A stretch of 64,000 nucleotides of DNA from Gammaproteobacteria bacterium (GCA_963422205.2 CAXMWX010000001.1:448001-512000), one strand, 5' to 3'; positions 33,925 through 51,958 are shown, counted from the stretch's first letter. The notes: generated by a model from the sequence alone, not told the origin. Numbers and translations are program-made.

Positions 33925-33979
33925 AATACGAGCGCACAAACCATAGTGTTAAGATGACCAGTTCAACGGGAGAGTTAAG

Positions 33980-35699: not shown

Positions 35700-38435
35700 T
35701 CAAGCCGCTTCCAGCTTGACGGCGCAGTATTTAAATTCCGGTATCTTGCCGTAAGGGTCCAGTGCTTCAATGGTCAACAGGTTGGCCGCTGCCTCATGGT
35801 AGCAAAACGCCATGAAGACGTTGCCCGGTTGCAGTCTCGTATCTGCCCGGCTAATGGCCTCTACCGCCCCTCTTCTTGAACTGATATGTACCCGCTTGCC
35901 CGCATCCAGTGCAAGCCGGTCAAGATCATCGGGATGCACGCTGACCACCGGCAAGGGTTCCAGTTGGTTCAATATGCTGGCACGCCGGGTCATGCTGCCG
36001 GTGTGCCAATGTTCAAGCTGCCTGCCCGTGATGAAGATGAACGGGAATGCCTGATCCGGCAGTTCGGCGGCCATCTCATAGTCCGCTGAGACAAAACGGC
36101 CACGTTTGTCGTCGGTAGGGAAGCCCTCGGTAAAGATCACCGCCGTGCCGGGATCGCCTGTATTTAACAAGGGATAAGTTAAGGAATGTGCCTTGTCCAG
36201 TCTGTCCCATGTCATGCCCGCCATGCTGGGTGTTGCCTGTCTGATCTCGTTGAAGACAGATCCCGCTGAAGGGTAGTCCCAATCCAGCCCCAGGCGTTTT
36301 GCCAGTTCCTGGATGATCCATAAGTCCTGTCGGGCCTGGCCGGGCGGTTCGATGGCCTGTCTGCCGAGTTGTACCCGTCTGTCAGTGTTGGTAAACGTAC
36401 CGGTTTTCTCAGGGAAGGCAGAGGCGGGCAAAATCACATCGGCAAAGCCGGCGGTCTCGGTGAAAAAAATATCCTGCACGATGAGATGCCTTAATCTCGC
36501 CAGGGCAGCACGTGCATGGTGTAAATTGGGATCGGACATGGCCGGGTTTTCACCCATAATATACATCCCGTCCAACTCACCATCATGGATGGCGTGCATG
36601 ATCTCAACCACGGTCAGGCCGGGCTCTCTATCCAGTTCCGTGTGCCATAATTGTTCGAATTTTTGCTGTACCTGCTGATCGTTGACCGGCTGATAATCCG
36701 GGTAGACCATGGGGATGAGGCCAACATCGGATGCGCCTTGGACGTTGTTCTGTCCTCGCAATGGATGCAGGCCAGCCCCGGGGCGTCCAATCTGACCGGT
36801 CATCAAGGCCAGCGAGATAAGGCAGCGGGCATTGTCTGTGCCGTGCGTATGCTGGGAGATCCCCATGCCCCAGAAGATCATGGCGGCATCGGCCTTGGCA
36901 TAGATGCGGGCGACTTGTTTTAAGGTAGCGGCGTCAATACCGCAGATGGCAGCGACAGACTCCGGGCGGTATTTCGCTACGGCCGCTGTCAGCTCGGCAA
37001 AACCGTCCGTGTATTGCTCAATATAATCACGATCATAAAGCTCTTCTGTAATGATGGTGTGTATCATGGCATTGAGCATGGGAACATCGGTATCCGGCCG
37101 GAATTGCAAAAAGTAATCGGCATGACGGGCCAGATCAGAGCGATAGGGATCCATCAGGATGAGAGTCTTGCCGGCCTTGCTCGCATTCTTCATAAACGTA
37201 GCCGCCACCGGATGATTGACCGTCGGCCTGGCGCCAATGACGATGATGACCTCGGCCTCGCTGACATCGGTGACCGGATTGGATACTGCCCCTGAGCCGA
37301 TCGTCTCCAGCAGTGCGGCCACGGAAGAGGCATGACATAAACGGGTACAATGATCGACATTGTTTGAACGAAAGCCCGTTCTGATGAGTTTCTGAAACAG
37401 ATACGCCTCTTCATTGCTGCCCTTGGCCGAACCAAACCCCGCCAGTGCGCGTGCACCTTTGCCATCACGTATTGCCAATAACCCGGCGGCGGCAACATCC
37501 AGTGCCTCCTCCCAGCTTGCCTCAGTAAAGTAATCCATCCTGTTCTCAGGGGCGATCACCTCGGCGGTCTTGGGCGCATCCGGCTTGCGAATTAATGGCG
37601 TGGTGAGCCGGTCGGGATGATGCACATAATCAAAACCGTAACGGCCCTTGACACAAAGCCGGCCTTTATTGGCTGGCCCGTCTTTGCCGTTGACGGCGTG
37701 AATCCGGTTGTCCTTGACGTGATAGGTGAGCAGGCAGCCCACACCGCAGTAGGGGCAGACGGAATCCACCTGCTTATCGGCATCCTCCCCGGCCCGCCCA
37801 TTGACCGACATCAGGGCGCCGGTAGGGCAGGCTTGCACGCATTCCCCGCAGCTAACGCAGCTGCTCTCACCCAAGGGGTCATCACTATCGAAGACAATTT
37901 TTGCCTGCTCCCCCCGGAAGGCATAACCGATGACATCATTCACTTGCTCTTCCCGGCAGGCCCTGATGCAGCGTGTGCAGTGAATGCAGGTATCCAGGTT
38001 GACCTGGATTGCCGGGTGGCTTGAATCGGCAGCAACAGGCTTTCGAGCCGGGAGGCGTGGCCGGCCCACCGCCATCTCCCTGGCCCAGTAGTCCAGCTCT
38101 GATTGGCTGGTGTGTGGTGAGCCGCCCTGATCAGGCATATCCGCCAGTAACAACTCAAGGATCATTTTCTGTGCCTGCACCGCCCGTTCGCTGTCCGTGC
38201 TGACCTTCATGCCTGCCTGTGGCTGGCGGCAGCAGGCGGCGGCCAGCACCCGCTCGCCATCGATCTCGACCATGCAGGCCCGGCAGTTGCCATCAGCACG
38301 GTAGCCCGGTTTGTAGCAGAGATACGGGATAGCGACATGCAGGCGTTTTGCCGTTTGCAAAATGCTCTCACCGGCCAGAGCCTGCACGGGTTTGTCGTTT
38401 AAGTAAAAAGCAACCGGGTTTTCCTGTAAGGTCAT
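35700..38435 (-). CDS. fdhA: Formate dehydrogenase alpha subunit (Fdh1A-like, W/Mo-bisPGD)
   Basis: N-terminal FeS motifs, CPYCGVGC, DHCTRLCH, LRGQNNVQG, IPEFKYCAV. Confidence 0.95.
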   Translation of the reverse strand: MTLQENPVAFYLNDKPVQALAGESILQTAKRLHVAIPYLCYKPGYRADGNCRACMVEIDGERVLAAACCRQPQAGMKVSTDSERAVQAQKMILELLLADMPDQGGSPHTSQSELDYWAREMAVGRPRLPARKPVAADSSHPAIQVNLDTCIHCTRCIRACREEQVNDVIGYAFRGEQAKIVFDSDDPLGESSCVSCGECVQACPTGALMSVNGRAGEDADKQVDSVCPYCGVGCLLTYHVKDNRIHAVNGKDGPANKGRLCVKGRYGFDYVHHPDRLTTPLIRKPDAPKTAEVIAPENRMDYFTEASWEEALDVAAAGLLAIRDGKGARALAGFGSAKGSNEEAYLFQKLIRTGFRSNNVDHCTRLCHASSVAALLETIGSGAVSNPVTDVSEAEVIIVIGARPTVNHPVAATFMKNASKAGKTLILMDPYRSDLARHADYFLQFRPDTDVPMLNAMIHTIITEELYDRDYIEQYTDGFAELTAAVAKYRPESVAAICGIDAATLKQVARIYAKADAAMIFWGMGISQHTHGTDNARCLISLALMTGQIGRPGAGLHPLRGQNNVQGASDVGLIPMVYPDYQPVNDQQVQQKFEQLWHTELDREPGLTVVEIMHAIHDGELDGMYIMGENPAMSDPNLHHARAALARLRHLIVQDIFFTETAGFADVILPASAFPEKTGTFTNTDRRVQLGRQAIEPPGQARQDLWIIQELAKRLGLDWDYPSAGSVFNEIRQATPSMAGMTWDRLDKAHSLTYPLLNTGDPGTAVIFTEGFPTDDKRGRFVSADYEMAAELPDQAFPFIFITGRQLEHWHTGSMTRRASILNQLEPLPVVSVHPDDLDRLALDAGKRVHISSRRGAVEAISRADTRLQPGNVFMAFCYHEAAANLLTIEALDPYGKIPEFKYCAVKLEAA

Positions 38436-40096
38436 TTTGCAAACTCCTGAGGGAAATGGTTGATGGCCGAGCGCAGGGGATTAGGCGCCGCCTGACCCAG
38501 CCCGCAGATAGAGGCATCGGCCATGGCGGCACAAAGCTCCTCCAATAAGGCGACATCCCATTTTTCCCGTTGCATCAGCTTGACCGCCTTGGCCGTGCCG
38601 ACACGGCAGGGCGTACATTGGCCGCAGGATTCGTGGGCGAAAAAACGCATGCAGTTCAGCGCCAGCTGCCTTGCGGAGTCATGTTGTGACAACACAATAA
38701 TGGCCGCCGAGCCAATAAAACAGCCGGCCTCATGCAGCGTGTCGAAATCCAGCGGCAGATCCGCCAGGCTTGCCGGCAGGATGCCGCCTGAAGCACCGCC
38801 CGGAAAATAGCCATACAACTGATGCCCGGCGAGCATACCGCCGCAATACTCGGCAATCAATTCATTCAGTGTGATCCCGGCCGGGGCGAGATGGACTCCA
38901 GGCCGGTTGATGCGACCGCTGACAGAGAACGAGCGCAGACCCTGCCTGCCGTTGCGCCCATGCGATAAAAACCACGCCGGGCCCCTCTCCAGAATATCCC
39001 GCACCCAGTACAGGGTTTCCATGTTGTGTTCCAGGGTCGGCTTGCCAAACAAACCCACCTCGGCCACGAACGGCGGCCTTAGCCTTGGCATACCACGTTT
39101 GCCTTCGATGGATTCGATCATGGCCGACTCCTCCCCACAGATATAGGCACCCGCCCCCCGGCGCAGAATGATCTGTGGTGTTTGCAGGGTTTTATCGTTC
39201 GCCAGGGCCGCCAGCTCATGCTGCATTATCTGTCGGCATTCTGCATACTCATCACGTAAATACATATAGATCGCCTCGGCCTCTATTGCCCAGGCAGCGA
39301 TCAATACCCCCTCAAGCAGGCGGTGCGGGTCGCGCTCCAGATAATACCGATCCTTGAATGTGCCTGGCTCCCCCTCATCAATATTGACGGCGATCAGGCG
39401 CGGCTTTTTCTGCTGGCTGAGTATATCCCACTTCTTGCCGGCCGGAAATCCGGCACCCCCCAGGCCGCGCAAGCCGGCCGCCTGCATTTGCGAGATCACG
39501 TATGCACGTGTCAGGTCGCCGTCATGGCATTTTTTCAGCAGTTGATACCCCGCCGTGCGGCGATACGCATCCAGCGTGATATACGGCCTGAGTGTTGTCA
39601 CGGCTGTCTCGCCGCGCGCTATCATGGCGGTGATTTTTTTCGCCGTTGCCTGTTCTGCCGGGTTTGTCCCGACAACGGCCACGGGCGCACTATGGCATCG
39701 GCCGACACATGGCACAGGCTGAATACGTACCTTGTGGCGAGGGAGTTGTTGCTCAAGCTCGGCCATGAGGTGTTCAGCCCCGTACATCTCGCAGGTGATG
39801 GACTGACAGACCCGGACTGTCAACTCGGGCGGGGCGGGGTGCTGGTCTTTGACGACATCAAAATGATGATAGAAGGTGGCCACTTCATAAACCTCGGTGG
39901 TGGAGAGTTTTAACTCCTCAGCCAGTGCGGTGATGTGATCGGCGGAGATATGGTGATATTCATCCTGTAGCCGATGCAGAAATTCGATCAGCAGGTCTCT
40001 TCGTCTCGGCATACCTTCCAGCAGCTGTGTGATGGCCTGCCGTGATTGTGCATCGGCCTCCCGCCCGCGAAATTGATTGTTGATTTTTTTATTCAT
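38432..40096 (-). CDS. fdhB: Formate dehydrogenase beta subunit (NuoE/NuoF-like, FMN/NADH)
   Basis: GLRGLGGAGFP, DEGEPGTFKDR, GAGAYICGEE, ESCGQCTPCR. Confidence 0.93.
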   Translation of the reverse strand: MNKKINNQFRGREADAQSRQAITQLLEGMPRRRDLLIEFLHRLQDEYHHISADHITALAEELKLSTTEVYEVATFYHHFDVVKDQHPAPPELTVRVCQSITCEMYGAEHLMAELEQQLPRHKVRIQPVPCVGRCHSAPVAVVGTNPAEQATAKKITAMIARGETAVTTLRPYITLDAYRRTAGYQLLKKCHDGDLTRAYVISQMQAAGLRGLGGAGFPAGKKWDILSQQKKPRLIAVNIDEGEPGTFKDRYYLERDPHRLLEGVLIAAWAIEAEAIYMYLRDEYAECRQIMQHELAALANDKTLQTPQIILRRGAGAYICGEESAMIESIEGKRGMPRLRPPFVAEVGLFGKPTLEHNMETLYWVRDILERGPAWFLSHGRNGRQGLRSFSVSGRINRPGVHLAPAGITLNELIAEYCGGMLAGHQLYGYFPGGASGGILPASLADLPLDFDTLHEAGCFIGSAAIIVLSQHDSARQLALNCMRFFAHESCGQCTPCRVGTAKAVKLMQREKWDVALLEELCAAMADASICGLGQAAPNPLRSAINHFPQEFAK

Positions 40097-40105
40097 GAGA
40101 CAAGT

Positions 40106-40924
40106 TTATTTTGGTGTGTTTAACAGGACAAGTAACTCCCCTTTGCCGTTCTCCGCCATATCGCCGGCATAGCGATGCACCTCAGGCCCGTAGTGCTTGA
40201 AGCGGCGATACCTGCTGCCCATGCGCGATAGCTGCTTGAAGAACAGCCGTAAATAGGCCATCTTCAAATGGCCGCAACTGACCATGCCCGCCCCCATCAG
40301 GGCCGGGGCAGATTGCATGATAATCGTGCCTCTTTTCATGCCATAGCCGGGCAGGTGGCCGCACTTGCCCAGCACCACTACCGTACCGGCAATCATATTC
40401 GCCCCCGTATAATCGCCAGCATCTTTAGCGATCAGGATCATCCCGCGGCGCATCTTCTGCCCGGCCCGATCACCGGCATTTCCCCACACCGTGATCAGGC
40501 CATCATCCATGCCGTGCCTGCCACAGCCGATAGCGTGACCGGCATCGCCCATCACCTCGATCCTGCCCCAGCGCATCTGCCACCCCAGCCAGTTGCCGCA
40601 GTGACCATGCACATGAATGCTGCCGCCCTGCATGGCTTCGCCCAGGTAATCGCCAGCGTGTGATTTGACAGTGATACGGCCCTTGGTCATGCCATAACCA
40701 ATACGCTGCACATATTCGTTAGTGCGCCGTATTTCGATGTCATTGGCATCGTTGCCCTGTAGGGTAAACAGCTCGCCAATGCGAATTTTCTCATTGCCAA
40801 GCCGTACCTTGAGCGCGGCGATGGCGTGTCGATCCCCGGCCCGGGCGAGCAGGTCCGGCGTCAACACCGATAAATCCAGCGTTTTATCCGGTTTGCTTAA
40901 CAGGGTAAAGATCATGCGGCTCAT
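40106..40924 (-). CDS. fhcC: Formyltransferase/hydrolase complex subunit C
   Basis: GxxMxxG beta-helix repeats, GKGELL end. Confidence 0.92.
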   Translation of the reverse strand: MSRMIFTLLSKPDKTLDLSVLTPDLLARAGDRHAIAALKVRLGNEKIRIGELFTLQGNDANDIEIRRTNEYVQRIGYGMTKGRITVKSHAGDYLGEAMQGGSIHVHGHCGNWLGWQMRWGRIEVMGDAGHAIGCGRHGMDDGLITVWGNAGDRAGQKMRRGMILIAKDAGDYTGANMIAGTVVVLGKCGHLPGYGMKRGTIIMQSAPALMGAGMVSCGHLKMAYLRLFFKQLSRMGSRYRRFKHYGPEVHRYAGDMAENGKGELLVLLNTPK

Positions 40925-41817
40925 GTCAGTATATCCCTTAAATGAAAGTGGTACGGCCCCAGTTTGCCGCCATAGTTCCCGGCGCTGATCCGGTAAATGC
41001 CCTTCTCCGGGCCATACTGACAGACCGCTTCAACCCCGGCCTTGATCGCGGCTTTTATTGCCGCTTCGCTCATACCATCGATCACGATCTCCAGCACCGA
41101 GCCGATCTCCTCGGTCAACATGCTGTCCACCTGGCCCTTTAGTGTCGGACAAAAGGCTTCGTTGGTGGAGGCGGGCAGGAAGGTGTATTTGGAGCCAACC
41201 TTTGAACCAGAACCGACAATGCCGCCGGGAAAGGTGGTGACCGCCCCGGGTATGTTGCTGATCGCTTTGACGGCTTTTTCACAGGCGAGCAGGCCCTGGC
41301 GTGATGTCCTGGCCATGACCATGAAATTACCACCACCGATCGCCGGCACCACGCCGGTAGACTCCTCGCACAGGAACTCGCCGTGCATCACCGGAATCCG
41401 CCAGTATCTGATCCCGGCCAGCACCTTGGCGATCTGATAACCATCACCAAAATACCGGAGATTTTTACCCAGTGGCAGCATGGTGTTGCTTCTGATGCCA
41501 GCAAAACATGCACTGGTGGCGGTGGTCATCACCGATTGCCCGACGCGCCGGGTGAGTTGGTCGGCCAGCTGAGTTTTTGACATGGCAAAGATCAAAACCG
41601 CCAGCCCGGGCCTGCCGTCCGGGGTTTCTGCCGGTTTTAATTCGCATTCAATGTCCGACTCGCAACCACAGGCGATGACCGAGGAGGCAAAGCCGGTCAG
41701 CGAGTTGGCCGCCCGGTACGCCCATTGCAGCGACATCGCCGTGATGATGATACGGGTGGCCTGCATCGGGAAGCCCTCGGCAAAGGTATCGTCTATGACT
41801 ATGCCGTTGATCTTCAT
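40921..41817 (-). CDS. fhcD: Formylmethanofuran:H4MPT formyltransferase (copy 1)
   Basis: DTFAE, GFASSVIACGCE, GSKVGSKY, SAGNYGGKLG. Confidence 0.95.
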   Translation of the reverse strand: MKINGIVIDDTFAEGFPMQATRIIITAMSLQWAYRAANSLTGFASSVIACGCESDIECELKPAETPDGRPGLAVLIFAMSKTQLADQLTRRVGQSVMTTATSACFAGIRSNTMLPLGKNLRYFGDGYQIAKVLAGIRYWRIPVMHGEFLCEESTGVVPAIGGGNFMVMARTSRQGLLACEKAVKAISNIPGAVTTFPGGIVGSGSKVGSKYTFLPASTNEAFCPTLKGQVDSMLTEEIGSVLEIVIDGMSEAAIKAAIKAGVEAVCQYGPEKGIYRISAGNYGGKLGPYHFHLRDILT

Positions 41818-41818
41818 A

Positions 41819-43471
41819 TTACCTGCCGGGCTGTACTGTCAAGGCGCTCTCATTGTAGCTTTCCAGCTCCGCTGTGCTTAACTTGAAATTACCCAGGCGC
41901 ATGGTCATGTAGTCATCGAAATAACGTTTTAACGAGCGCTCAATACCGGCATCGTAATCGGGCCTGAGCACGTGTGTGGTTGTTTTCGGCAGGGCGCAGA
42001 CCTTGCCGTCTTTCACCACCCGCTCGCCATTTTTAAATACATACGCTGGTCGGCTGAACATTCTCTCGACATTCTTATCGGGGCTGTAGACCGCGATATC
42101 AGCCCGTGCGCCAGCGCCCAGATGCCCGCTGTCAGTCAGCCCCAGGCTCCTGGCGGGGGCGGCACGGGTCAGGATGGCGATTTCATGCAGCGTGTATTCC
42201 CGGGTGATGCTGGCCAGATGGCTGGCCCCGGCGGCCTCTGGATGAATGCGCTTGAGCATATCGTTGCGAAAGCTCTTGTCCATCAATAGACGAATCAGAT
42301 GAGGGTATGAGGTGAACGGCGCACCATTGGGGTGATCGGTGGTTAAAAAAACACGCCAGGGATCGTCCACCAGCAAAAAGATCTCAAGGCCAATACACCA
42401 TTGCAAGGCGTTCACAAAACGCATGTCTCGATACTTGAACGGCACCACCCCGCAGCCGGCATCACATTCAATATCCATACAGACCCACTTATTCGGGTGT
42501 GCATGGGCATGGCCGGCATACTGCATCATGGTATCCGCCGATGTGGTGGCTGTCTGGCCGAACATGATCTGACCCACATCAATGGAAATATTGGGATTGC
42601 TGTTGACCGCTTCGGCAATCTCTGCGGCGGCTGAGGAGAAATTTCTGTCGCCCTCCTGTCCATAGCTGTGAAACTGGACATGCGTTAAGTGCATGGGCCG
42701 TCCCTGTGCGGCGGCGATGGTATCTAACGTGGTCTTGACATTCCCCGGCACGCCCAGGTTACAGCCGTGTACATGCAGCGGGTGGGGTATGGCGATGTCG
42801 GCCACGGCGGTGAGTAATGCCGTCAAGATCGTGCGCGGCGTCAGGCCATAGTGGCGATTTTTCTCATCCAGATCGAGCTGGCGCTGATTAAATTTAAAGG
42901 CACTGATGCCGCCGGGGTTGACCGTCTTTACCCCCATTGCCTGGGTAGCTTGAATAGTCCAGGCGATGTAATCGTTGATGAGTTGCTGATCACGCCCGGC
43001 TTTAAGCAGGCGCAAAAAAAAGTCATCATTGCCTAACAACACATAGGCCCCGGTGTCCAGCATCGGTGTGTCCGCCATCTCCATGTGCGTCTGGCGTGCA
43101 TTGACCGGCAACATGGCTGGTTCAAAGCAGGAGGTATAACCCATCTCAGCATAGCGATAGCCGGTAATGAAGCTGGAGGGCGTACACCGCCCGGAGCCGG
43201 AGCGGGTCAAGCGCCCCCTCCTGACTCTGTTGTCTGCGTGATCCTCGGCCAGCAGCATGCGCCCGATATTGACCTTGCCGCCGCCTATGTGCGTATGGAT
43301 ATCAATCCCTCCCGCCATCACTATCTTGCCGCTGACATCAATAACGGCATCGATCTTTTGATTCCTACCGGGCTTGACCAGCCTGCCATCCTCAATAAAC
43401 ACATCACGTTTTTTACCCGTATCCGCATTCGCCGGATCATAAATGCGACCGCCTTTCAGTCGCATCAGCAT
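41819..43471 (-). CDS. fhcA: Formyltransferase/hydrolase complex subunit A
   Basis: DIHTHIGGGKVN, HLTHVQFHSY, TTDHPNGAPF. Confidence 0.95.
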   Translation of the reverse strand: MLMRLKGGRIYDPANADTGKKRDVFIEDGRLVKPGRNQKIDAVIDVSGKIVMAGGIDIHTHIGGGKVNIGRMLLAEDHADNRVRRGRLTRSGSGRCTPSSFITGYRYAEMGYTSCFEPAMLPVNARQTHMEMADTPMLDTGAYVLLGNDDFFLRLLKAGRDQQLINDYIAWTIQATQAMGVKTVNPGGISAFKFNQRQLDLDEKNRHYGLTPRTILTALLTAVADIAIPHPLHVHGCNLGVPGNVKTTLDTIAAAQGRPMHLTHVQFHSYGQEGDRNFSSAAAEIAEAVNSNPNISIDVGQIMFGQTATTSADTMMQYAGHAHAHPNKWVCMDIECDAGCGVVPFKYRDMRFVNALQWCIGLEIFLLVDDPWRVFLTTDHPNGAPFTSYPHLIRLLMDKSFRNDMLKRIHPEAAGASHLASITREYTLHEIAILTRAAPARSLGLTDSGHLGAGARADIAVYSPDKNVERMFSRPAYVFKNGERVVKDGKVCALPKTTTHVLRPDYDAGIERSLKRYFDDYMTMRLGNFKLSTAELESYNESALTVQPGR

Positions 43472-44715
43472 CCGCTTATCGCCTGTAGCCGGGCTATGAT
43501 CTGTTTAAGCACAGCACCTGTGCTGTACAGTTCGCTGTCACGCAGCTTTTTTAATGGCAGATTGATCACCGCATCGGCACGAAACAGGTTGCCTGCATGA
43601 TCGATGCCGGGCGTGCCTACCGGCAGGTATATCGTGGCACCTTTGCGAACGGCCTGATTGTTCGAGATGATGATGCCTGGCACATCCAGGGTCGGCGGGG
43701 TATCTCTCTCCAGGCTGGAAATCCAGACCAGGGCATCACACTCGGCCGGGTATGGCGTGTACGGGTCGGGTTGGCTGTCGGGGAAGCCATCGGTAAAACG
43801 CAGCCCGGCGGGGAAACCGGTTTGCCAGGTGGCGACTTGTTGTAACGATCCACCGGCATTATTATCCGTCAGTGCCAGCCCGGCGGCCCGTTGGCGTTGA
43901 TTCAGTTTGGCGATCAGATCGGTGATCGTGCGGATAAGCAAATCGGCACTGTCTGCCGGCAGGGCGGCGGCCGACCAGATAAAAACCGGATAGTGCGCTG
44001 CCTGGATCAGGGCGCTTGCCTGCTTGAGTTTTTTCAGTTTTTCTCTGGCAATGTTTTGATCCGTACCGCGCTGACCAAGCAGCGTGCATTTAAGTAATGT
44101 CAGCAGGTTGAGCAGCCCGTTGCCAGTGGCCGGTATGTGCAGTAAAGATTCGCCCAGTTTGATTTTCTCCTGCCGGCTCGCCTGCCCGATACAGATCAGT
44201 TTTCTCCGCTGTCCTTTGGGAAGAAACTGCGCCTGCCTGGTGGTGATAAACCTGTCGAGCAGGCGGGGGTACTTCGTGGTGATTTTATCGCCGATGAACA
44301 CCACCACATCGGCGCGATTTTTCAACTCGGCAAACGTGGTCATCATCCCGCCGCCGGTCTGCATCACATTGAGATTGTGTAATGTGCTGTCCTCGTATTT
44401 GTGTCGGATCACCGCATTGGTTAATTCGGCGAGATGAAGCGCCGCACGGAGCCCGTTTATGTCTGTCCCGAGATCGGCAATCAGCGGTCGCCTGGATTTT
44501 TTCAGCAGGATGGCGGCGTGTTTTACCGCCTCTGTATGTGATACGGGTTGTTGGTGTGCATAGGCTTGTGCTCCTGGCGGGGCCTGCTTAAAGCCCCGGG
44601 CGGCAAGTACACAGCCATGATTGACGACCTGCAATCGCCTCTGCCGTGCCTGCACGGACAGATCATCACATAATAGACTGCAAAAAGGGCAGGTTATGTC
44701 ATGCAATGTCGTCAC
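43465..44715 (-). CDS. fhcB: Formyltransferase/hydrolase complex subunit B (non-catalytic)
   Basis: CPFCSLLCDD, ELKNRADV, WQTGFP; lacks catalytic Cys-His and RGH. Confidence 0.9.
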   Translation of the reverse strand: MTTLHDITCPFCSLLCDDLSVQARQRRLQVVNHGCVLAARGFKQAPPGAQAYAHQQPVSHTEAVKHAAILLKKSRRPLIADLGTDINGLRAALHLAELTNAVIRHKYEDSTLHNLNVMQTGGGMMTTFAELKNRADVVVFIGDKITTKYPRLLDRFITTRQAQFLPKGQRRKLICIGQASRQEKIKLGESLLHIPATGNGLLNLLTLLKCTLLGQRGTDQNIAREKLKKLKQASALIQAAHYPVFIWSAAALPADSADLLIRTITDLIAKLNQRQRAAGLALTDNNAGGSLQQVATWQTGFPAGLRFTDGFPDSQPDPYTPYPAECDALVWISSLERDTPPTLDVPGIIISNNQAVRKGATIYLPVGTPGIDHAGNLFRADAVINLPLKKLRDSELYSTGAVLKQIIARLQAISGC

Positions 44716-44822
44716 TATGGCCTCTGTCTCGGTACGGCTTACGGTTATCCATCAGGAGCAACAGCCTGGCTTATCGCAGGCTGTGCGTGGGTGCGGAGAG
44801 TTAAGAGTTGTCTACGGCGGCG

Positions 44823-46196
44823 TCAGTCCAACAAGGCCAGCATGGCAGAGATGTCGGTATATTTTTCTCGGGGCTTTCCCGCTGCCTGGCCTCGCTCTAT
44901 CTCGCTTGCGTCAATTTTTTTCCAATCCTCAAAACTGACGTATCGTATGTTACGTTCAGTCAGGATCGTATAACAGCCTTCAGCCCCGGTTTTCGCCTCG
45001 CCTGTGTCAAGCCGGTCGATGTCGTCAAGTAAACAACCGACAGTCTCAACACTGTCTGCGCGGTTGGTGCCGATGATACCAGTTGCCCCCCGTTTTATCC
45101 ATCCTGCGGTATACAGCCCGGGCATGAGGCCATCGGCAGCGTGAATACGCCCCATCTGGTTGGCAAAGACCCCGCTGCTCTCATCAAACGGCACACCGGG
45201 CATCGCCCGTCCCTGATAGCCGATGCTGCGAAACACGAGGCCTGTTTCTATCTCATACCTTGCCCCCGTCCCGTGTGCTTTTTGGGAGAAGGGTTCGCCC
45301 GCCAGCCGGTTACTCTCCAGCACGATGCGCTGCACCCGGCCATTGCCAGTGATGGCCACCGGGCTGTTAAGAAAGGTAAATCGGCATTGTCTTGCCTTGG
45401 TGGTGCGGCGTTCGGAGAATTGTTTGAATAGATCCACCACCTTCCGACTGCCAGCGTTGGTTTTCTCGGCAAGTTCGGCCTTGCTTTCGGGATTAAGCTG
45501 CAAGTCCTCTGTGGCAACCACCGGATCGCACATGGCCAGCTCTCCAAATTCCTTCAGCTCTTTTGAGGTAAATTTCGCCTGTGCCGGCCCCCGCCGGCCA
45601 ATCACATACACCTGCTTGATTTTGCTCATCGCCAGGGCATCCAGTGCATGTTGGGCGATGTCGGTGTGTTTTAACTCATCGATCGTCTTGCTGAGGATAC
45701 GGCTGACATCGGCTGCCACATTCCCCTGGCCGATGATGACCGCCGTCTCATGGGAAAGATCAAATTGCCGATCACGGTAATCCGGGTGACCGTTATACCA
45801 GCCGACAAACTCGGTTGCCGTATGACTGCCGGGCAGGTCTTCACCCGGAATCTCCAGCCGGCGGTCGGTCTCGGCACCACAACTTAAAATGACCGCATGG
45901 TGGGTTTGTTGCAACTCTGTGATGCTGATATCCCGGCCCACAGTCACGTTGCCGAGGTAGTTGAATTGGCTCGCCTCGGCGATGCGGGCATAGACCTTGA
46001 TCACCTGCTTTAACTTGGGATGATCCGGGGCGACTCCGCTACGCACCAGACCATAAGGAGTGGGCAGGCGTTCCAGCAGGGTAATGTTCACCGTCAAGGC
46101 GGATTTAAGCAGTGCCTCGGCGGCATAAAAACCGCTGGGGCCGCTGCCGACGATAGCGACCTGAAGCGGGTTAGCCGGCGTGCCTGTGTGACTCAT
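44823..46196 (-). CDS. Ferredoxin-NADP+ reductase (FprA/adrenodoxin reductase type)
   Basis: GSGPSG, GLVRSGVAPDH, IGQGNVAADV, GWIKRG, GKPREK. Confidence 0.92.
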   Translation of the reverse strand: MSHTGTPANPLQVAIVGSGPSGFYAAEALLKSALTVNITLLERLPTPYGLVRSGVAPDHPKLKQVIKVYARIAEASQFNYLGNVTVGRDISITELQQTHHAVILSCGAETDRRLEIPGEDLPGSHTATEFVGWYNGHPDYRDRQFDLSHETAVIIGQGNVAADVSRILSKTIDELKHTDIAQHALDALAMSKIKQVYVIGRRGPAQAKFTSKELKEFGELAMCDPVVATEDLQLNPESKAELAEKTNAGSRKVVDLFKQFSERRTTKARQCRFTFLNSPVAITGNGRVQRIVLESNRLAGEPFSQKAHGTGARYEIETGLVFRSIGYQGRAMPGVPFDESSGVFANQMGRIHAADGLMPGLYTAGWIKRGATGIIGTNRADSVETVGCLLDDIDRLDTGEAKTGAEGCYTILTERNIRYVSFEDWKKIDASEIERGQAAGKPREKYTDISAMLALLD

Positions 46197-46249
46197 GGCC
46201 TGTCGTGTTTTTTAACCGATGCCAGGGCGAGACTGCCTTGACAGCGTGG

Positions 46250-46555
46250 TCATAAACCCAGGGCGGCCTTCTTCTCATCGGCACCGGGCAGGGGTTCCAT
46301 GGAATCGGCGCAAACGGGCAGGGCAGGTGCTCTCTGGGCATTGATGTCAATCCACTCCAGCTTGTCTTCCGGCAAGTCATCTTCCTCATAAATGGCCTGC
46401 ACCGGGCATTCCGGGATACAGGCGCTACAGTCAATGCAGACATCGGGATCGATGTAGAGCATCTGCTCATCATAGTGAAAACACTCTACCGGGCAGACAG
46501 TCACGCAGTCTGTGTAACGGCAGTCTTTACAATTATCGGTGACAACGGTCGTCAT
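46250..46555 (-). CDS. Dicluster ferredoxin (FdxA/7Fe type)
   Basis: CxxCxxxxCxxxCP and CIDCSACIPECP. Confidence 0.93.
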   Translation of the reverse strand: MTTVVTDNCKDCRYTDCVTVCPVECFHYDEQMLYIDPDVCIDCSACIPECPVQAIYEEDDLPEDKLEWIDINAQRAPALPVCADSMEPLPGADEKKAALGL

Positions 46556-46638
46556 GTTTCTCTCCTTAAAGCCGGGTGCTGAACGATGCAGATTCTAACC
46601 TGCCTGCAGGGGGTAATGATAGCTTAAAAATAAAAATC

Positions 46639-47451
46639 TCAGCCGGCGTAAAGTAATATTTCACCTTTATTTAACTCCACGCCATCCCCGCAAAAACGCC
46701 TGTAGCTGCCGGCTTTATGTGCTGCCGTCAAGGCCAGCCCCAGCTGTTGCAGATAAATAAAATACATACGCAGAAAGGCCGGCGGCCAGGTGCAGGCGTA
46801 AGTGAAGGTCGGTAACAACTCCGCCTGCTTGAGCGATACGATAGACCCTCTTTTCATGCCGGCCCCGGTGCGAAGCCCCAGCTCTCCCAACACCATGATC
46901 GTACCGGCCAGCATGTTCACGCCGGTGAAGTCGCCGCTGTTGCCGGCGATGGCGATCAGCCCATTACGCATGGCATGACCCACTTCGTTACGGGCGCTGC
47001 CGTGGATGATGATCTCCCCGCCACACATGCCCGTGGCCGCCCCCCGGTAGGCACTGCCAATCATGTGGCCAGCATCACCATAGATGATGATGCGACCGCC
47101 GGACATCTCCGGCCCGACCCAGTCGTCAGCGTTGCCCTCTACCCGTATCTCACCGCCCCGCATCCCCGCCCCCAGATGCGGGCCGACATCGCCCTCAATA
47201 TGCAGGCTGCCATGGGTCATCTGGGCGCCCAGGAATTTAACTTTGGACAGATCGCCAGAGATACGCACCGTGCGGTCATCTGCATTGCCTGAAACAGCAA
47301 AAAAATCGGCCAGCAGGCAGGGCTGATTGCCATAGTGCAGGGGCAGTTTTTCAATCTCGGTATGGCCTAACCCAGATAATCTGTCGGGGGTGATGGTATC
47401 GGCTTCCAGCGGCACATCAGGGCAGACCCGTTGTGTAAGTTCCAGTGCCAT
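46639..47451 (-). CDS. fwdC: Formylmethanofuran dehydrogenase subunit C (copy 2)
   Basis: GxxMxGG repeats, KGEILL end. Confidence 0.9.
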   Translation of the reverse strand: MALELTQRVCPDVPLEADTITPDRLSGLGHTEIEKLPLHYGNQPCLLADFFAVSGNADDRTVRISGDLSKVKFLGAQMTHGSLHIEGDVGPHLGAGMRGGEIRVEGNADDWVGPEMSGGRIIIYGDAGHMIGSAYRGAATGMCGGEIIIHGSARNEVGHAMRNGLIAIAGNSGDFTGVNMLAGTIMVLGELGLRTGAGMKRGSIVSLKQAELLPTFTYACTWPPAFLRMYFIYLQQLGLALTAAHKAGSYRRFCGDGVELNKGEILLYAG

Positions 47452-47452
47452 G

Positions 47453-48340
47453 TCAACCGGCCATGAGTTCATGTAAGTGAATTTTATATTGCCCCAGGCT
47501 GCCGCCATAATTCCCTGCACTGATCTTGACCACCCCTGGCCGGGCGGCGGCCTCCACACCTGCCTGCATTGCCGCCCTGATGGCAGCTTCTGTGAGTCCG
47601 TCGATGACTATCTCCAGTACACAGTTGACCTCATCGGGTAATGCCGTGCTGGTGAGGGCCTTTAAGGTGGGGCAATAGGCTTCGTTGGTTGAGGCGGGCA
47701 GCCCCTTGTAGCGAGAGCCGACCTTGCTGCCGCTACGTACCACACCATCCGGGAAAGGCAGGATGATATCGCCGCACATACGCATGGCCTGCACCGCTGC
47801 CGTGGCGGCGGACAGGCCCTGTTCTGCATCGGTTGCCATCAGGATAATATTGCCGCCTGCCACGGCCTCCTGCACGGCAAAACTCTCGGCCACGGTAAAC
47901 TCACCATCCATCACCGGAATACGCCAGTAGCGCCGGCCGGCAAGTTGTTTACTGGCCTGGAAGCCATCGCCGAAATAGCGCAGTTGGGAGCCAACCTGCA
48001 CAGTCTGTTCATTCTCAAGCCCGCTGAAACATGCCGTGGTCGGGCAGGTCATCACACACTGGCCGATGCGTTCCACCAGCCGTTTGCCAACCGCTGCCTT
48101 GTCCATCGCAAATAACAAGACACTGACGCCAGGCCGCTCGTCCGGTGTTTGTTCGGGCGATAATGTGGTTTCAATGCCGGCTTCGCATTGGCAGCCAATG
48201 ATGGAGGTGGCGAATCCGGTCATTGTCTGTGCGGCGGCCAGCGCCCATTGTTCAGTCGCCGCGGTGATGATCACACGTGTGCCCCACAGTGCGAAGGCCT
48301 CAGCAAAGGTATCTGCTATGTCGGTGGTTCTGAGCCTCAT
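47453..48340 (-). CDS. ftr: Formylmethanofuran:H4MPT formyltransferase (copy 2)
   Basis: DTFAEAF, RIGQCVMTCPTT, RSGSKVGS, SAGNYGG. Confidence 0.95.
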   Translation of the reverse strand: MRLRTTDIADTFAEAFALWGTRVIITAATEQWALAAAQTMTGFATSIIGCQCEAGIETTLSPEQTPDERPGVSVLLFAMDKAAVGKRLVERIGQCVMTCPTTACFSGLENEQTVQVGSQLRYFGDGFQASKQLAGRRYWRIPVMDGEFTVAESFAVQEAVAGGNIILMATDAEQGLSAATAAVQAMRMCGDIILPFPDGVVRSGSKVGSRYKGLPASTNEAYCPTLKALTSTALPDEVNCVLEIVIDGLTEAAIRAAMQAGVEAAARPGVVKISAGNYGGSLGQYKIHLHELMAG

Positions 48341-49980
48341 CCTGGCACGGTTGCAATGATTTGGTGATCATGCAGGTAGCTGTCGTTGACGGCATAGTTA
48401 TCGAACTCAATGGAGTAATAGTTCTCAAAGAACGGCCTCACCTGCCGAACAATGCCATCATCATAACCGGGTTCGACATGTAAAAATTTACCGCTGTGAT
48501 CCTGGCGGAACTCATGATCTTCTATCACCGGTATGCCGGCCTTGAAGACATACCGCGGTGCATTGAACATGGCCTCTTTGTCTTCCATGTCATCATAGAC
48601 GGTGATGTCGGCATCGGCACCGGCCGCCAAATGCCCCTTGTTGTTCAAACCCAGCGCCCGGGCCGGGCCGGCGCGGGTGATGATGGCGATCTCGTTTAGG
48701 GTATATTCCCGATCTAGCTCGTTCAGCATGGTCTGGTTGATCGCCTTTTGGTTCACCCGCTTGATCTCCTCGGCACGAAACGCGCTGTCCATCAGCAGCC
48801 GGATCAGTTTAGGATAGCTCATGAACGAGCCGCCGTTGGGGTGATCCGTTGACAGCACGATGCGCCAGGGATCGTTTGACAGCAGGAATAATTCGAGACC
48901 AATCGCCCATTGCAGGGCGTGTACGTAGACATGTTCCTGGTAGTTGAACGGCACGATGCCGCAGCCGCTTTCACATTCGGTATCCGCATTGACCCATTTG
49001 CCCTTCTTAAACCCCCGCAACATGTACGCCAGGGGTGCATCGGCGGTCATGATGGTGGATTTGCCAAACATGACCTGGCCGACATCGCAGGTAATGTTCG
49101 GATGGGCATTGACATACTCGGCTATTTCTCTGGCGGCTGATTTCGGGTTTTTACCCAACTCGCCGGCATAGCTGTGAAACTGGATATGGGCGAGGTGGAC
49201 CCGTCTGTCAGCGGCGGTTTTCATGGTCTCCAGCGTGGTGGTGACATTGCCGCTGTGGCCGAGGTTGTTGCAATGAATGTGCGGCGGGTGAGGCAGGCCC
49301 AGTGCATTGACGCTGTCAATAAACGCCTCAATAATCTGCCGTGGCGTGATCTCAAAGACATCGCTCTGCTCATCAATGTGGGTAACATTGGCATTTTTTT
49401 TGCCCTTCCAGGGCTCATCGCCGCCCGGGTTGACCAGCTTGGTCGTGTAGGCCTTGGTTGCATTGATCCACCAGGCAACCGCCTGTTTGAACTCCTCTGT
49501 GCGCTTTTCCCTGAGCAGTTGCTGTAGAAAGATATTATTGCCGAGCAACACATAAAAGCCTTTATCGATCACGGGTGTGTCGTGCAATTCCTCAATGGTA
49601 TGGCGAGCGCCAATGGGCGTGACGGCAGCTTCCATGGCCGTGGTGTAACCCAGGGCGGCATAGCGGTAGCCCGTGGCAAAGGTTGAGGGGACGGTGCCGC
49701 CTGAGCCAGACCGGGTACAAGCGGTGGCCGGATGGGGATCATGCCGATGATCCTCCGGCTGGAGTTTGCGCGCCAGATTGACCTTCGGGCCGGCGATATG
49801 GCAATGAATGTCCACCCCGCCGGGCATGACGACCATGCCATCAAGGGCATATCTTCTCGGCGTAGCAGAGGGTGATTTAACGATTATGCCGTTTTCAATA
49901 AAGAGGTCTTTGACCTGGCCGTTGATACCATTGCCAGGGTCATATACCCGGCCGCCAGCAAGCTGTATGCAGTCTGTCAT
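48337..49980 (-). CDS. fwdA: Formylmethanofuran dehydrogenase subunit A
   Basis: DIHCHIAGPKVN, KLVNPGG, HIHCNNLG, STDHPNGG. Confidence 0.93.
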   Translation of the reverse strand: MTDCIQLAGGRVYDPGNGINGQVKDLFIENGIIVKSPSATPRRYALDGMVVMPGGVDIHCHIAGPKVNLARKLQPEDHRHDPHPATACTRSGSGGTVPSTFATGYRYAALGYTTAMEAAVTPIGARHTIEELHDTPVIDKGFYVLLGNNIFLQQLLREKRTEEFKQAVAWWINATKAYTTKLVNPGGDEPWKGKKNANVTHIDEQSDVFEITPRQIIEAFIDSVNALGLPHPPHIHCNNLGHSGNVTTTLETMKTAADRRVHLAHIQFHSYAGELGKNPKSAAREIAEYVNAHPNITCDVGQVMFGKSTIMTADAPLAYMLRGFKKGKWVNADTECESGCGIVPFNYQEHVYVHALQWAIGLELFLLSNDPWRIVLSTDHPNGGSFMSYPKLIRLLMDSAFRAEEIKRVNQKAINQTMLNELDREYTLNEIAIITRAGPARALGLNNKGHLAAGADADITVYDDMEDKEAMFNAPRYVFKAGIPVIEDHEFRQDHSGKFLHVEPGYDDGIVRQVRPFFENYYSIEFDNYAVNDSYLHDHQIIATVPG

Positions 49981-50037
49981 TATCTTTTGGGATGATTATG
50001 TTTATGGCGGGTCAGCCGCCGGTTGCTGTCCGCCAGC

Positions 50038-51414
50038 TCATGGCATGGCGGCGGTCATCTGCTCATCTGCATCAGCACGCCGAACGATGTGACTGCTCTC
50101 GCTTCTGGCCTGTACCAACTCCTGCACACGCTGTTTGATGGCCGTGAGTATCTCCTCATCGGTGGGGAAGGGCGAATCATAGACCTTACGCAGGGTGATG
50201 GGGACATCGTCCATGCGATAGACCGTGCCGGTGGTGTTGATGCCGTAGGTTGCCGTCCGAAAAGCGACATGTGCCAGCCTGCTGGTCAGGGTTTCCTTGG
50301 TATCCAGGCAGATCACCGGTATGTTGGACAGATGATCGATCGCTGCCCTGGGGAAATTAGCCGCCGGATCACTGGCGATAATCAAGGCGGCATCAGCATC
50401 TTGTTTTGCCAGGACATCGACCGTGGTAAATTCGCCCGGGTTAAACCGCGGGAAGCCGCGGCTGAAATTCACGCCAAAGGGATACCCTGTCTGCCAGGAC
50501 AGGACGTTATCAGCACCGGTCACGTTGCCATGACCACGCACTGGCTTGGCGACAAAATGGGTATATTCGTTTAAGTCTGTTGCCAGTGCCAACAGGGCGC
50601 CTGAGTTGAAATGTCGGCCGCGGGTCATGGTCAGCCCCATGCCAAAAAACAGCACGCCGTAGCGACAGTTCCTCATCATCTCCACCAGCATCTGCATCAC
50701 CTGCTGGCTGACGCCGGTAATCGCTTCAATATTCTCGGCCAGTGATCGGCCTTTGAGCAAGGCACGCAGCGCCCACAGCAATTCAAAATCCTTACCCGGT
50801 TTGACCTGCACAAAATGATTGGCCGCCGGTGCGCTGGGCGTCTTGCGTACATCCACCACCACGACCGTGCGATCTTTCTTGCCTTTGGGGGTGAACATCC
50901 CCTTGGCCGTGACGGCATAGCGACCGAAATGGCGCGGGTGCGATTCCGCCGGATTGCCGCCCCAGTAGATGACCAGATCGGCGCGGTTTTTAACCTCGCC
51001 CAGCGTCATGGTGCTCTCCCCTACCCCCTGAAAGGCCAGGCCTGATGGCCCGTGGCAGACCGAGGTGGTGGTGTCTATGTTGCCCCGGCTAATATCGGCA
51101 ATCGCCACCGCCTGTCGCTGTGCCTCGCAGGTGGTATCACTCAGGCCATAGATGATCGGGAACCTCGCCCGGGCGAGGGTCTGTGCGGCCTGTTCAATGG
51201 CCTCATCCAGCGATGCCGGCTGGCCGTCGATCAACGCCGCCGGGGCAGCTTCGTCGATCGTATGTTCAGCAAACCAGGCACGACCCAGCACGCAGGCATT
51301 TTTTGATTTGATAATGCGTTTCGCCTCCTCATCCACACTCAAGATCATGTCATCACACACACAGCCACAGAAGGTGCAGGTGGCGTTTTTGATCACGTTG
51401 ATATTGGCGCTCAT
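50038..51414 (-). CDS. fwdB: Formylmethanofuran dehydrogenase subunit B, catalytic residues intact
   Basis: CTFCGCVCDD..C, SVCHGP, HPRH, RGHGNVTG, VYRMD. Confidence 0.93.
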   Translation of the reverse strand: MSANINVIKNATCTFCGCVCDDMILSVDEEAKRIIKSKNACVLGRAWFAEHTIDEAAPAALIDGQPASLDEAIEQAAQTLARARFPIIYGLSDTTCEAQRQAVAIADISRGNIDTTTSVCHGPSGLAFQGVGESTMTLGEVKNRADLVIYWGGNPAESHPRHFGRYAVTAKGMFTPKGKKDRTVVVVDVRKTPSAPAANHFVQVKPGKDFELLWALRALLKGRSLAENIEAITGVSQQVMQMLVEMMRNCRYGVLFFGMGLTMTRGRHFNSGALLALATDLNEYTHFVAKPVRGHGNVTGADNVLSWQTGYPFGVNFSRGFPRFNPGEFTTVDVLAKQDADAALIIASDPAANFPRAAIDHLSNIPVICLDTKETLTSRLAHVAFRTATYGINTTGTVYRMDDVPITLRKVYDSPFPTDEEILTAIKQRVQELVQARSESSHIVRRADADEQMTAAMP

Positions 51415-51420
51415 GGTGTT

Positions 51421-51777
51421 TTACGTTACCGGTTGAATTGATGAGATTTTCTCTACATCCACTGCCAGGTGTTTTGAGAGCGGCATACCGCTGCCCGCCG
51501 TATCGCTTTCCATAAGCTGGCTGGACTGGGGGCCGTAGGGAATGAACAGCATACCGGCGGGCAGACCGGTGCCCGCCGTACAGGTGACGATTGCCTCGCC
51601 GATGGCATTGCTTAACCGCAGGCGATCGCCCTCGCTGAACCCCAGGTGCTGCATATCCTCCTGACTCATCTCGACAGTGGAGGTGACTTGCTGGTAGTCC
51701 GCTTTCAGCTTACCTTTGTTGAGTGTGGTGCCCTGTTGTTTCGAACGCCCGGGCACCAGGAGCATATTTGTTGGCAT
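51421..51777 (-). CDS. fwdD: Formylmethanofuran dehydrogenase subunit D (pterin dinucleotide-binding)
   Basis: GRSKQQG, GMLFIPYGP, TAGSGMP. Confidence 0.88.
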   Translation of the reverse strand: MPTNMLLVPGRSKQQGTTLNKGKLKADYQQVTSTVEMSQEDMQHLGFSEGDRLRLSNAIGEAIVTCTAGTGLPAGMLFIPYGPQSSQLMESDTAGSGMPLSKHLAVDVEKISSIQPVT

Positions 51778-51958
51778 AGATTGGCTCCGTTGCAGCGCAA
51801 CATAAATTATTGATATTATGCAGGTATTACGCTCGGAAACATGCCATCGCTACTGTCCCCTGATACGGGTTTCAGTAATATCACTTTCAGCGATGAGCGT
51901 CAAATTAAGACCAATACAACGCGATGGCAGAGAAAACCATGACAGATCATACCAGAGC

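Follow-up and report, generated by a model that had tools for sequence, protein, structure and literature searches.

Textbooks divide the formylmethanofuran enzymes between the redox-active formylmethanofuran dehydrogenases (Fwd/Fmd) of anaerobic archaea and the pterin-free Fhc of aerobic methylotrophic bacteria. Here we analysed a 64,000-nucleotide stretch of DNA (the window; one strand, positions counted from its first letter) from an uncultured Gammaproteobacteria bacterium (GCA_963422205.2, CAXMWX010000001.1:448001-512000), in which a single run of 13 genes holds a Fwd set with an intact catalytic site, a ferredoxin gene (fdx) and a reductase gene (fnr, encoding FNR), followed by an Fhc set and a formate dehydrogenase (FDH). 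We give a probability of about 0.55 to the reading that the Fwd module is an oxidative route from formyl-tetrahydromethanopterin (formyl-H4MPT) to CO2, passing its electrons via ferredoxin to NADP+ and running parallel to Fhc plus FDH.

With the archaeal FwdABCD(FG) complex of M. wolfeii (5T5I), the window module shares the FwdB residues, a separate FwdD, the beta-helix core of FwdC and a FwdA closer to the archaeal subunit than to FhcA; it differs in having a free 7Fe ferredoxin and an FprA-type flavoprotein instead of FwdF and FwdG, and in having ftr in the operon, an FhcC-type tail on FwdC, an aerobic bacterial host and a FwdB of a bacterial clade. The FhcABCD complex of Methylorubrum extorquens (6S6Y) has the same gene order as the window's fhcBADC, and the window FhcB likewise lacks the catalytic Cys-His pair and Arg; the Fwd module, too, has this B-A-formyltransferase-C order and an FhcC-type tail, but keeps the dehydrogenase that Fhc lost. 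While the M. extorquens FhcB is described as having no N-terminal iron-sulfur (FeS) domain (Hemmann et al. 2019, PMC6926001), the window FhcB carries an N-terminal four-cysteine motif, and 6s6y_B aligns with it only from window residue 62. The F420-reducing Fmd of 'Ca. Ethanoperedens' (8RJA), as outlined in two accounts (PMC11493965, PMC11656701), resembles our proposal in working oxidatively, pulled by an acceptor of much more positive potential; its host is an anaerobic archaeon, however, and its reductase is wired to the complex, whereas for the window a soluble ferredoxin and an NADPH-type flavoprotein are proposed from the genes.

Bacterial fmdD-fmdB-fmdA-fmdC operons, likewise with an intact FmdB (Sec or Cys) and fmdD, were reported from a Rhodopirellula-like planctomycete, a Lake Washington fosmid and 'Ca. 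Methylomirabilis oxyfera' (Kim et al. 2016, PMC4807772); as described in that report they come without ftr, ferredoxin or FNR, and are neither in Proteobacteria nor beside Fhc. Proteobacteria and Planctomycetes are both stated to lack fwdD in Chistoserdova 2016 (PMC5020050); the Wells 2020 phylogeny (PMC7331816) speaks, in the relevant passage, of absent bacterial FwdB/FmdB, and a MopB survey (PMC10100899) tabulates 149 bacterial 'FwdB' hits without commenting on them. A literature search found no description of a gammaproteobacterial fwdD or of a Fwd-ferredoxin-FNR module, although supplementary tables of papers on metagenome-assembled genomes (MAGs) may list such genes. Contrary to the published statements of absence, intact FwdDBAC is common in aerobic uncultured Gammaproteobacteria, and the Fwd-ferredoxin-FNR module is common in related uncultured bacteria yet hardly described.

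Gene content and conserved residues of the two sets

Open reading frame (ORF) calling filled positions 35700-51777 with 13 co-oriented minus-strand ORFs separated by short gaps or overlapping, and Pfam and NCBIfam matches named them in the order fwdD-fwdB-fwdA-ftr-fwdC-fdx-fnr-fhcB-fhcA-fhcD-fhcC-fdhB-fdhA (Table 1), exactly as an earlier reading of the bare sequence (the original prediction) had listed them. The same arrangement was seen in dozens of independent genomes, a recurrence that takes it far beyond chance. For comparison, a scan of one genome per species yielded 556 relatives, of which the best 80 were taken as related loci; the residue counts given here take in the window protein together with the related loci.

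FwdB aligned over its full length with its M. wolfeii counterpart (5t5i_B; 391.5 bits), with the FeS cysteines C13, C16, C20 and C41 (CxxCxxxC...C), the catalytic SVCHGPS motif (Cys120-His121) and R293-G-H295 all in register; the catalytic residues named for M. wolfeii are Cys/Sec118, His119 and Arg288 (Hemmann et al. 2019, PMC6926001). The Cys-His and Arg-Gly-His residues were kept in every FwdB (81/81), and all four FeS cysteines in 80/81. FwdD scored 70.1 bits against NF042908, below the equivalog cut-off of 175, and has a PF01568 match (Table 1); fwdD was kept in 79/80 related loci at 53-71% identity, the exception (L055) being a locus that starts at fwdB, and the sole small ORF of PF01568 type in the run belongs to the fwd set. 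The claims that FwdB retains its cysteines, Cys-His and RGH and that a FwdD accompanies it were both borne out by the alignment to 5t5i_B and by the PF01568 match. In one relative (G383:C33:130714-132027) a FwdB match of 67% identity contains three in-frame stops (2 TGA, 1 TAG), and may be a pseudogene or, in part, reflect a selenocysteine codon.

All six binuclear-site metal ligands, mapped from 6s6y_A, were kept in 74/74 FwdA proteins, and Ftr matched the solved chains 6s6y_D (323.7 bits) and 1ftr (308.4 bits). The fwdC ORF is open as far as a GTG at 47559; we consider the ATG at 47451 (270 aa) the most likely start, because the family match begins at residue 39 and 40 relatives start at the aligned Met. 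Alignment of FwdC to archaeal FwdC ends at about residue 222, whereas that to FhcC (6s6y_C) covers residues 8-267, so the C-terminal 45 residues are in common with FhcC only. An AlphaFold2 (AF2) model of FwdC (mean predicted local distance difference test, pLDDT, 94.3) places helices at 225-236 and 243-247, and its TM-score was 0.91 to 6s6y_C vs. 0.87-0.88 to the M. wolfeii chains 5t5i_C/5t61; the Foldseek E-value, unlike the TM-score, places the archaeal chains first. In published descriptions of Fhc, a helix-loop-helix stands in for the FwdC beta-hairpin and holds the formyltransferase FhcD. Given the FhcC-type tail of FwdC and the presence of ftr inside the operon, where the order B-A-ftr-C equals that of fhcB-A-D-C, we read the Fwd set as a probable Fhc-style complex with the formyltransferase docked on FwdC and with the dehydrogenase half still working. 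We found no polyferredoxin genes (FwdF/FwdG) in the run; the only FeS protein beside fwd is the 101-aa FdI-type ferredoxin.

The second set, fhcB-A-D-C, has no D-cap subunit. Its FhcB aligned weakly with 5t5i_B (92.2 bits), with Leu at the position of the catalytic Cys and no RGH, and contains CPFCSLLCDD...C, that is, all four FeS cysteines. Among the gammaproteobacterial FhcB proteins (loci L002-L086) the catalytic Cys, His and Arg were kept in 0/39, vs. 38/39 for the four N-terminal cysteines. The claim that FhcB lacks these features is right as to the pterin-site residues and wrong as to the FeS cysteines. In these Gammaproteobacteria, FhcB may be an FeS-bearing scaffold, or a halfway stage of Fwd-to-Fhc evolution. 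FhcA kept the six metal ligands in 37/37 sequences. Two FhcB-type proteins scored high against the FwdB model, G425:C1:275690-276922 (L085) with 330.9 bits, over the cut-off of 327.8, and G427:C1:3076125-3077348 (L086) with 302 bits; both are without the catalytic Cys, His and Arg, and automatic annotation would name them formylmethanofuran dehydrogenase subunit B. In the FDH that closes the run, the diaphorase subunit scored 391.1 bits against TIGR01959, under the cut-off, and the alpha subunit has the Pfam domains Fer2_4, Fer4, Molybdop_Fe4S4, Molybdopterin and Molydop_binding.

Identities between the window paralogues were 46% for A, 23% for B, 36% for C (FwdC-FhcC over the whole length) and 53% for Ftr/FhcD, and with values of 23-53% we take the two sets to be old paralogues; the idea of a recent redundant duplication, which the original prediction had named as its possible undoing, is refuted. 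FwdA and FwdB are the best-conserved proteins of the module, with 65-84% and 73-83% identity, respectively, to orthologues in other families. Among solved structures FwdA matched archaeal FwdA/FmdA best (464-409 bits; 8rja_A 464.2, 5t5i_A 448) and M. extorquens FhcA lowest (373), while FhcA showed the reverse (459.3 bits to 6s6y_A vs. 414-378 to the archaeal chains). Both formyltransferases scored slightly highest against FhcD (320.7 bits for the window FhcD vs. 6s6y_D), with the fwd-linked Ftr closer to archaeal Ftr than FhcD is (308 vs. 287 bits).

Phylogeny had been put forward as a check for all subunits; it was run for B, as an IQ-TREE analysis of 37 B subunits comprising rows with a source-named organism (labels include Firmicutes, NC10 and Euryarchaeota), gammaproteobacterial rows and FhcB rows. 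Gammaproteobacterial FwdB formed a single clade (support 100/99), with planctomycete-labelled FwdB as its sister (97/87) and a Caldinitratiruptor sequence next (95/93), all nested in a bacterial clade (100/98), outside of which two archaeal-labelled rows stand with Clostridia. The root of this tree is unsure because the FhcB outgroup sits on a long branch. On this evidence, recent acquisition of Fwd from a methanogen seems unlikely.

Synteny, co-distribution and Fwd-only genomes

The order fwdD-B-A-ftr-C was constant through the 80 loci, and fdx and fnr lay directly 3' of fwdC in 51/53 loci with room for them (exceptions, L046 and L071). What follows fnr was fhcBADC in 33 loci, fdhBA directly in 3 and unrelated genes in 12, and because the genes after fnr vary in this way, the conserved unit consists of seven genes and ends at fnr. 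In loci without fhc, the unrelated genes 3' of fnr encode a Cache sensor, chorismate synthase, MFS and ABC permeases, DsbA and DNA polymerase III tau, and we found no cofactor or metal genes there. The ferredoxin resembles the FdI type of A. vinelandii (1frk_A, 107.7 bits over residues 4-95) vs. 24.6 bits for FwdG (5t5i_G), and its cysteines C9, C12, C17, C21, C25, C40, C43, C46 and C50 were invariant in 21/21 sequences. The fnr product matched M. tuberculosis FprA (1lqt_A, 355.6 bits over residues 10-453) and adrenodoxin reductase (1cjc_A, 348.6 bits).

The best 80 of the 556 relatives are all MAGs, mostly labelled Gammaproteobacteria, with one USCg_Taylor and two Ca. Oxydemutatoraceae among them; one FwdB-bearing MAG thus carries the label of an upland-soil-cluster gamma atmospheric methane oxidiser. 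In the host's own family, a true FwdB (E < 1e-200) was present in 19 of the 24 other genera sampled, and 18 of these 19 also had an FhcB-like gene. In an even sample of the class, FwdB (E <= 1e-100) occurred in 21/400 genomes from ~12 families (17/396 without the unpublished genomes G063, G165, G319 and G331), so that the survey of spread that had been suggested finds the module in 80 related MAG loci and FwdB in ~5% of sampled Gammaproteobacteria. FwdB sequences with Firmicutes and NC10 names also exist, and the four Cys, Cys-His and RG(H/Y) are present in 120/120 proteins related to a planctomycete FwdD-B fusion. Arg-Gly-Tyr replaces Arg-Gly-His in 4/120, the planctomycete-labelled FwdD-FwdB fusions P0123 and P0299-P0301 (578-614 aa).

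The reductase follows FwdB closely. In the class sample an FNR orthologue (>=59% identity) was found in 20/21 FwdB-positive vs. 3/379 FwdB-negative genomes; four of the positives are the unpublished genomes just named (16/17 without them), and the one FwdB-positive genome without FNR (G034) is 75% complete. A separate sample of 41 relatives contained 21 with FwdB and FNR, 2 with FwdB only (G005, G034), 2 with FNR only (G001, G018) and 16 with neither. These counts describe a pattern, with no statistical test, since related genomes are not independent.

Four complete or near-complete genomes (G007, G423, G424 and G426, the last three being complete chromosomes) have FwdB but no FhcB-like gene. 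All four have mch and fae over the cut-off, and with both genes present Fwd is the only enzyme there for removing formyl from methanofuran. Other relatives are Fhc-only (G001, G002, G011 and G022). The notion of two parallel formyl-methanofuran exits accordingly found its counterpart in nature, in relatives with both sets, with Fwd only or with Fhc only.

Proposed electron route and competing explanations

We propose the following route. Ftr would move the formyl group from H4MPT to methanofuran, FwdA would hydrolyse formyl-methanofuran to formate, and FwdBD, with a W- or Mo-pterin, would oxidise that formate to CO2; the FwdB [4Fe-4S] cluster would then hand the electrons to the 7Fe ferredoxin, from which the FprA-type reductase would pass them to NADP+. 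The net reaction would be formyl-H4MPT + NADP+ to CO2 + NADPH, without free formate. Fhc (fhcBADC), by comparison, would release free formate, for oxidation by the adjacent NAD-type FDH or capture by formate-tetrahydrofolate ligase, and the two routes may be regulated with respect to one another, as in the switchable branch point of the original prediction. From sequence we infer the cofactor content, the activity and its direction, ferredoxin as acceptor, NADP+ as final acceptor and the docking of Ftr.

The potential of NADP+ is about -0.32 V. That of the CO2/formyl-methanofuran couple has been put at -0.53 V (review, PMC11656701). Between these two values, oxidation to NADP+ would be strongly downhill and the reverse strongly uphill, and the ~0.2 V drop would drive the Fwd route forward.

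A bolder version of this proposal, which we regard as possible rather than probable, would see in the module an oxygen-tolerant, self-contained Ftr-FwdABCD that channels formyl-H4MPT to CO2 with no free intermediate and hands the electrons, via its own ferredoxin, to NADP+, and would take it for a surviving ancestral state that gave rise to Fhc by loss of the pterin, with the FeS-bearing, pterin-less FhcB as a halfway form. If the module is active, a branch that bypasses formate and yields NADPH has to enter the carbon-flux models of these methylotrophs, the evolution of Fhc from Fwd gains a concrete intermediate, and the 'all-in-one' CO2-capturing enzyme of biotechnological interest gains a candidate relative that is NADP-linked and compatible with oxygen.

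It has not been lost on us that several observations weigh against the oxidative, NADP+-linked route. Archaeal Fwd enzymes are oxygen-labile, and oxygen tolerance of this Fwd is putative at most. NADPH specificity of the FprA-like protein is taken from its family membership, and adjacency of fdx-fnr to fwd could persist by descent in related, non-independent genomes. The pair also occurs without Fwd: in G001, a congener of the host, fdx-fnr-fhcBADC-fdhBA stands without fwd genes, G018 has nrdA-nrdB-fdx-fnr-waaA with neither fwd nor fhc and the entire island missing, and G143, G227 and G403 are the three FwdB-negative genomes of the class sample with FNR. Conversely, G005 has the Fwd genes and fdx without fnr, and in the Fwd-only G007 (fwdDBA-ftr-fwdC-fdx-fnr-fdhBA, no fhc) fnr (L089, C1 4124-5493) is broken into two reading frames (residues 1-351 and 359-457), through either a frameshift that makes it a pseudogene or a fault in the assembly. 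Lastly, FDH genes lie directly 3' of fnr in the Fwd-only loci G007, L054, L057 and L065, an odd place if Fwd never releases formate; and the idea that FtfL tracks Fhc, as a means to assimilate free formate, was rejected, as FtfL was present in 22/24 family genomes and in all four Fwd-only genomes. FDH and formate-tetrahydrofolate ligase in Fwd-only genomes could point to formate leaking from Fwd or arising from other sources. Either exit, as these variants show, can exist by itself, and the ferredoxin-reductase pair can outlive Fwd.

The alternative that draws most from these observations is a working Fwd beside which fdx and FprA are a general housekeeping NADPH:ferredoxin pair, adjoining by inherited order, with the electrons going elsewhere (another ferredoxin, the FDH diaphorase or the respiratory chain). 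It would account for the genomes in which fdx-fnr outlast fwd, for the FNR-only members of the class sample and for the missing or split fnr of G005 and G007. Against a general housekeeping role in the class, however, no FNR orthologue was found in 376/379 FwdB-negative class genomes; the seven genes stay joined in several families while their flanks change; and G143, G227 and G403 all come from families whose other members have FwdB, a pattern that fits recent loss of fwd. We consider this alternative unlikely. The ferredoxin/NADPH-reductase link drawn in the original prediction stands as regards synteny (51/53) and co-distribution (20/21 vs. 3/379), but it is not exclusive, as G001 and G018 keep fdx-fnr.

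Predicted docking of the ferredoxin onto FwdB+FwdD bears on the same alternative. The score was 0.38 vs. 0.05 for the best of three controls, with runs agreeing in at least 87% of contacts and a partner pLDDT of at least 87. In calibration, the mark was reached by 58/80 solved complexes and 2/110 mismatched pairs; scores of 0.60 or below, however, took in only 7 of the 80 solved complexes, yet both passing mismatches. As FwdG on FwdB, a comparable complex, has a solved structure, the pass may also reflect memorisation by the predictor. Docking lends a ferredoxin-FwdBD contact weak support only, which leaves some room for the housekeeping pair.

A reductive Fwd working as in methanogens, loading CO2 onto methanofuran with reduced ferredoxin as a reversible CO2 entry into the H4MPT pathway, appears improbable to us. 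In its favour, the archaeal enzyme that reduces CO2 has the same catalytic apparatus, and the reaction is described as reversible in principle (PMC11656701). Clusters of very low potential occur in the 7Fe ferredoxin family. However, the sole dedicated reductase is of NADPH type, ~0.2 V too positive, so that CO2 reduction at -0.53 V would be steeply uphill, and the module contains no bifurcating partner, hydrogenase or polyferredoxin. The host is apparently aerobic, with a PQQ dehydrogenase (PQQ, pyrroloquinoline quinone) feeding formaldehyde into the pathway; we looked for RuBisCO in the host genome and did not find it, nor was any hexulose-phosphate synthase over the cut-off there, leaving nothing to use the product; and a reductive Fwd would leave the Fwd-only genomes without an oxidative exit. 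The reversible CO2 entry offered by the original prediction is not supported on these grounds. That the Fwd set is a second Fhc-like hydrolase with a disused pterin site (scaffold or relic), both sets then redundantly releasing formate, we judge the least probable, for although Fhc shows that redox function can be lost in the family (as described in PMC6926001) and some Fwd-only loci have FDH genes right after the module, the catalytic and FeS residues persist in 80-81/81 FwdB while same-genome FhcB paralogues lost the catalytic Cys, His and Arg in 39/39, FwdD, needed only as a pterin cap, is kept in 79/80 loci, and high conservation of FwdB (73-83% identity) and FwdA is not the pattern of a relic.

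Island, neighbouring genes and host

The run sits within an H4MPT/methanofuran island of an aerobe (Table 1).

Table 1. Features of the gene run and its surroundings in the window (MFR, methanofuran; bisPGD, bis-pyranopterin guanine dinucleotide)
Gene	Product	Length (aa)	Position	Strand	Supporting match
fwdD	Cap (fourth) domain subunit of the pterin site	118	51421..51777	-	PF01568, 44.4 bits
fwdB	Predicted catalytic W/Mo-pterin subunit, N-terminal [4Fe-4S] motif	458	50038..51414	-	TIGR03129, 523.1 bits (cut-off 327.8)
fwdA	Amidohydrolase subunit (predicted, formyl-MFR to formate + MFR)	547	48337..49980	-	TIGR03121, 706.7 bits
ftr	Formylmethanofuran:H4MPT formyltransferase inside fwd operon	295	47453..48340	-	PF01913 + PF02741; NF002554, 437 bits
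fwdC	Beta-helix subunit with FhcC-type C-terminal helix-loop-helix	270	46639..47451	-	TIGR03122, 271.5 bits
fdx	Azotobacter FdI-type 7Fe ferredoxin (3Fe-4S + 4Fe-4S)	101	46250..46555	-	NF045490 FdxA, 115.1 bits (under cut-off 135)
fnr (fprA-like)	NADPH:ferredoxin flavoprotein, adrenodoxin-reductase family	457	44823..46196	-	Similarity to solved members
fhcB	Pterin-less scaffold subunit with four-Cys FeS motif, GTG start	416	43465..44715	-	TIGR03129, 226.1 bits (under cut-off); no Pfam match
fhcA	Formyl-MFR hydrolase subunit	550	41819..43471	-	TIGR03121, 754.8 bits
fhcD	Formyltransferase subunit	298	40921..41817	-	NF002554, 438.7 bits
fhcC		272	40106..40924	-	TIGR03122, 209.2 bits
fdhB	FDH diaphorase subunit, NuoE-like + NuoF-like fusion	554	38432..40096	-	PF01257, PF01512, PF10589
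fdhA	FDH alpha, Mo/W-bisPGD NAD-type (predicted, FdsABG-like)	911	35700..38435	-	TIGR01591, 744.5 bits (cut-off 666.25)
Divergent H4MPT/MFR genes	beta-RFAP synthase, mch, CitG-like, fae, MfnF-like (TIGR03123), pabB, MfnE-like		51818..59337	+	NCBIfam
HisA/F-related gene	Among divergent H4MPT genes		55554-56252	-	
PQQ dehydrogenase	Methanol/ethanol family		31289-33241	+	TIGR03075, 625.3 bits
MoxJ-like	Binding protein		33980-34894	+	
SoxYZ-like	Carrier, quinoprotein dehydrogenase-associated		29823-30707	-	

A promoter scan of 35300-52100 gave 7 promoter-like sites vs. 11.2 expected, and a terminator scan of the same stretch 20 terminator-like sites vs. 13.6 expected; as none of either kind fell within the intergenic gaps, the scan defines no operon boundaries. 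A search for sequencing runs listed none of RNA, which speaks neither for nor against expression of the genes.

In the window, waaA (27921) and nrdB (61156) flank the entire methylotrophy island (xoxF cluster, FDH, Fhc, Fwd and H4MPT genes), and fdx-fnr stands in the middle of the island (compared stretch, 27921-63959). The corresponding locus of G018 (L088, G018:C1:272000-289000) reads nrdA-nrdB-fdx-fnr-waaA-DUF3108-pilB-like, and either lost the island in two pieces that left fdx-fnr behind, or reflects a state around which the island was built. In G001 (L087, G001:C102, 5844-7315), a 289-aa ORF of the NAD-epimerase family occupies the place of fwdDBA-ftr-fwdC between two repeat-like copies, which suggests a recent replacement or deletion. 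The possibility that fdx-fnr serves ribonucleotide reductase was rejected: only 7/86 loci, all close relatives, have nrdB no more than 10 kb from fwdB, and this proximity is family-level synteny only.

The host genome (2.99 Mb, 14 contigs, 98% complete) contains a single FwdB and a single FhcB. With two haem-copper oxidases, a class I ribonucleotide reductase and the PQQ dehydrogenase, its apparently aerobic character, as originally predicted, found support; formate-tetrahydrofolate ligase is also present, and the host reads as an aerobic methylotroph or C1 oxidiser, as yet uncultured. A search of the host genome for the ammonia monooxygenase (AMO)/PmoA family gave no match, but the positive control likewise matched nowhere, so that this negative does not speak against methanotrophy. 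ModA scored 137.5 bits, over its cut-off (G000:C3:259610-260218), and a TupA/TupB-like ABC transporter operon lies at G000:C11:323364-325554 (L092 1423-3613; TupA model, 235.5 bits, below the cut-off of 400). The host may be able to import both tungstate and molybdate, and FwdB could hold either metal.

Two ORFs at the island edges, at 34797-35690 (+, 297 aa) and 59434-60210 (-, 258 aa), matched neither a Pfam nor an NCBIfam family. We noticed no small subunit beside the PQQ dehydrogenase (29823-34894), which fits a XoxF-type enzyme. Two further NCBIfam models matched within this PQQ cluster (29823..34894), TIGR04557 with 223.5 bits and TIGR03871 with 257.1 bits.

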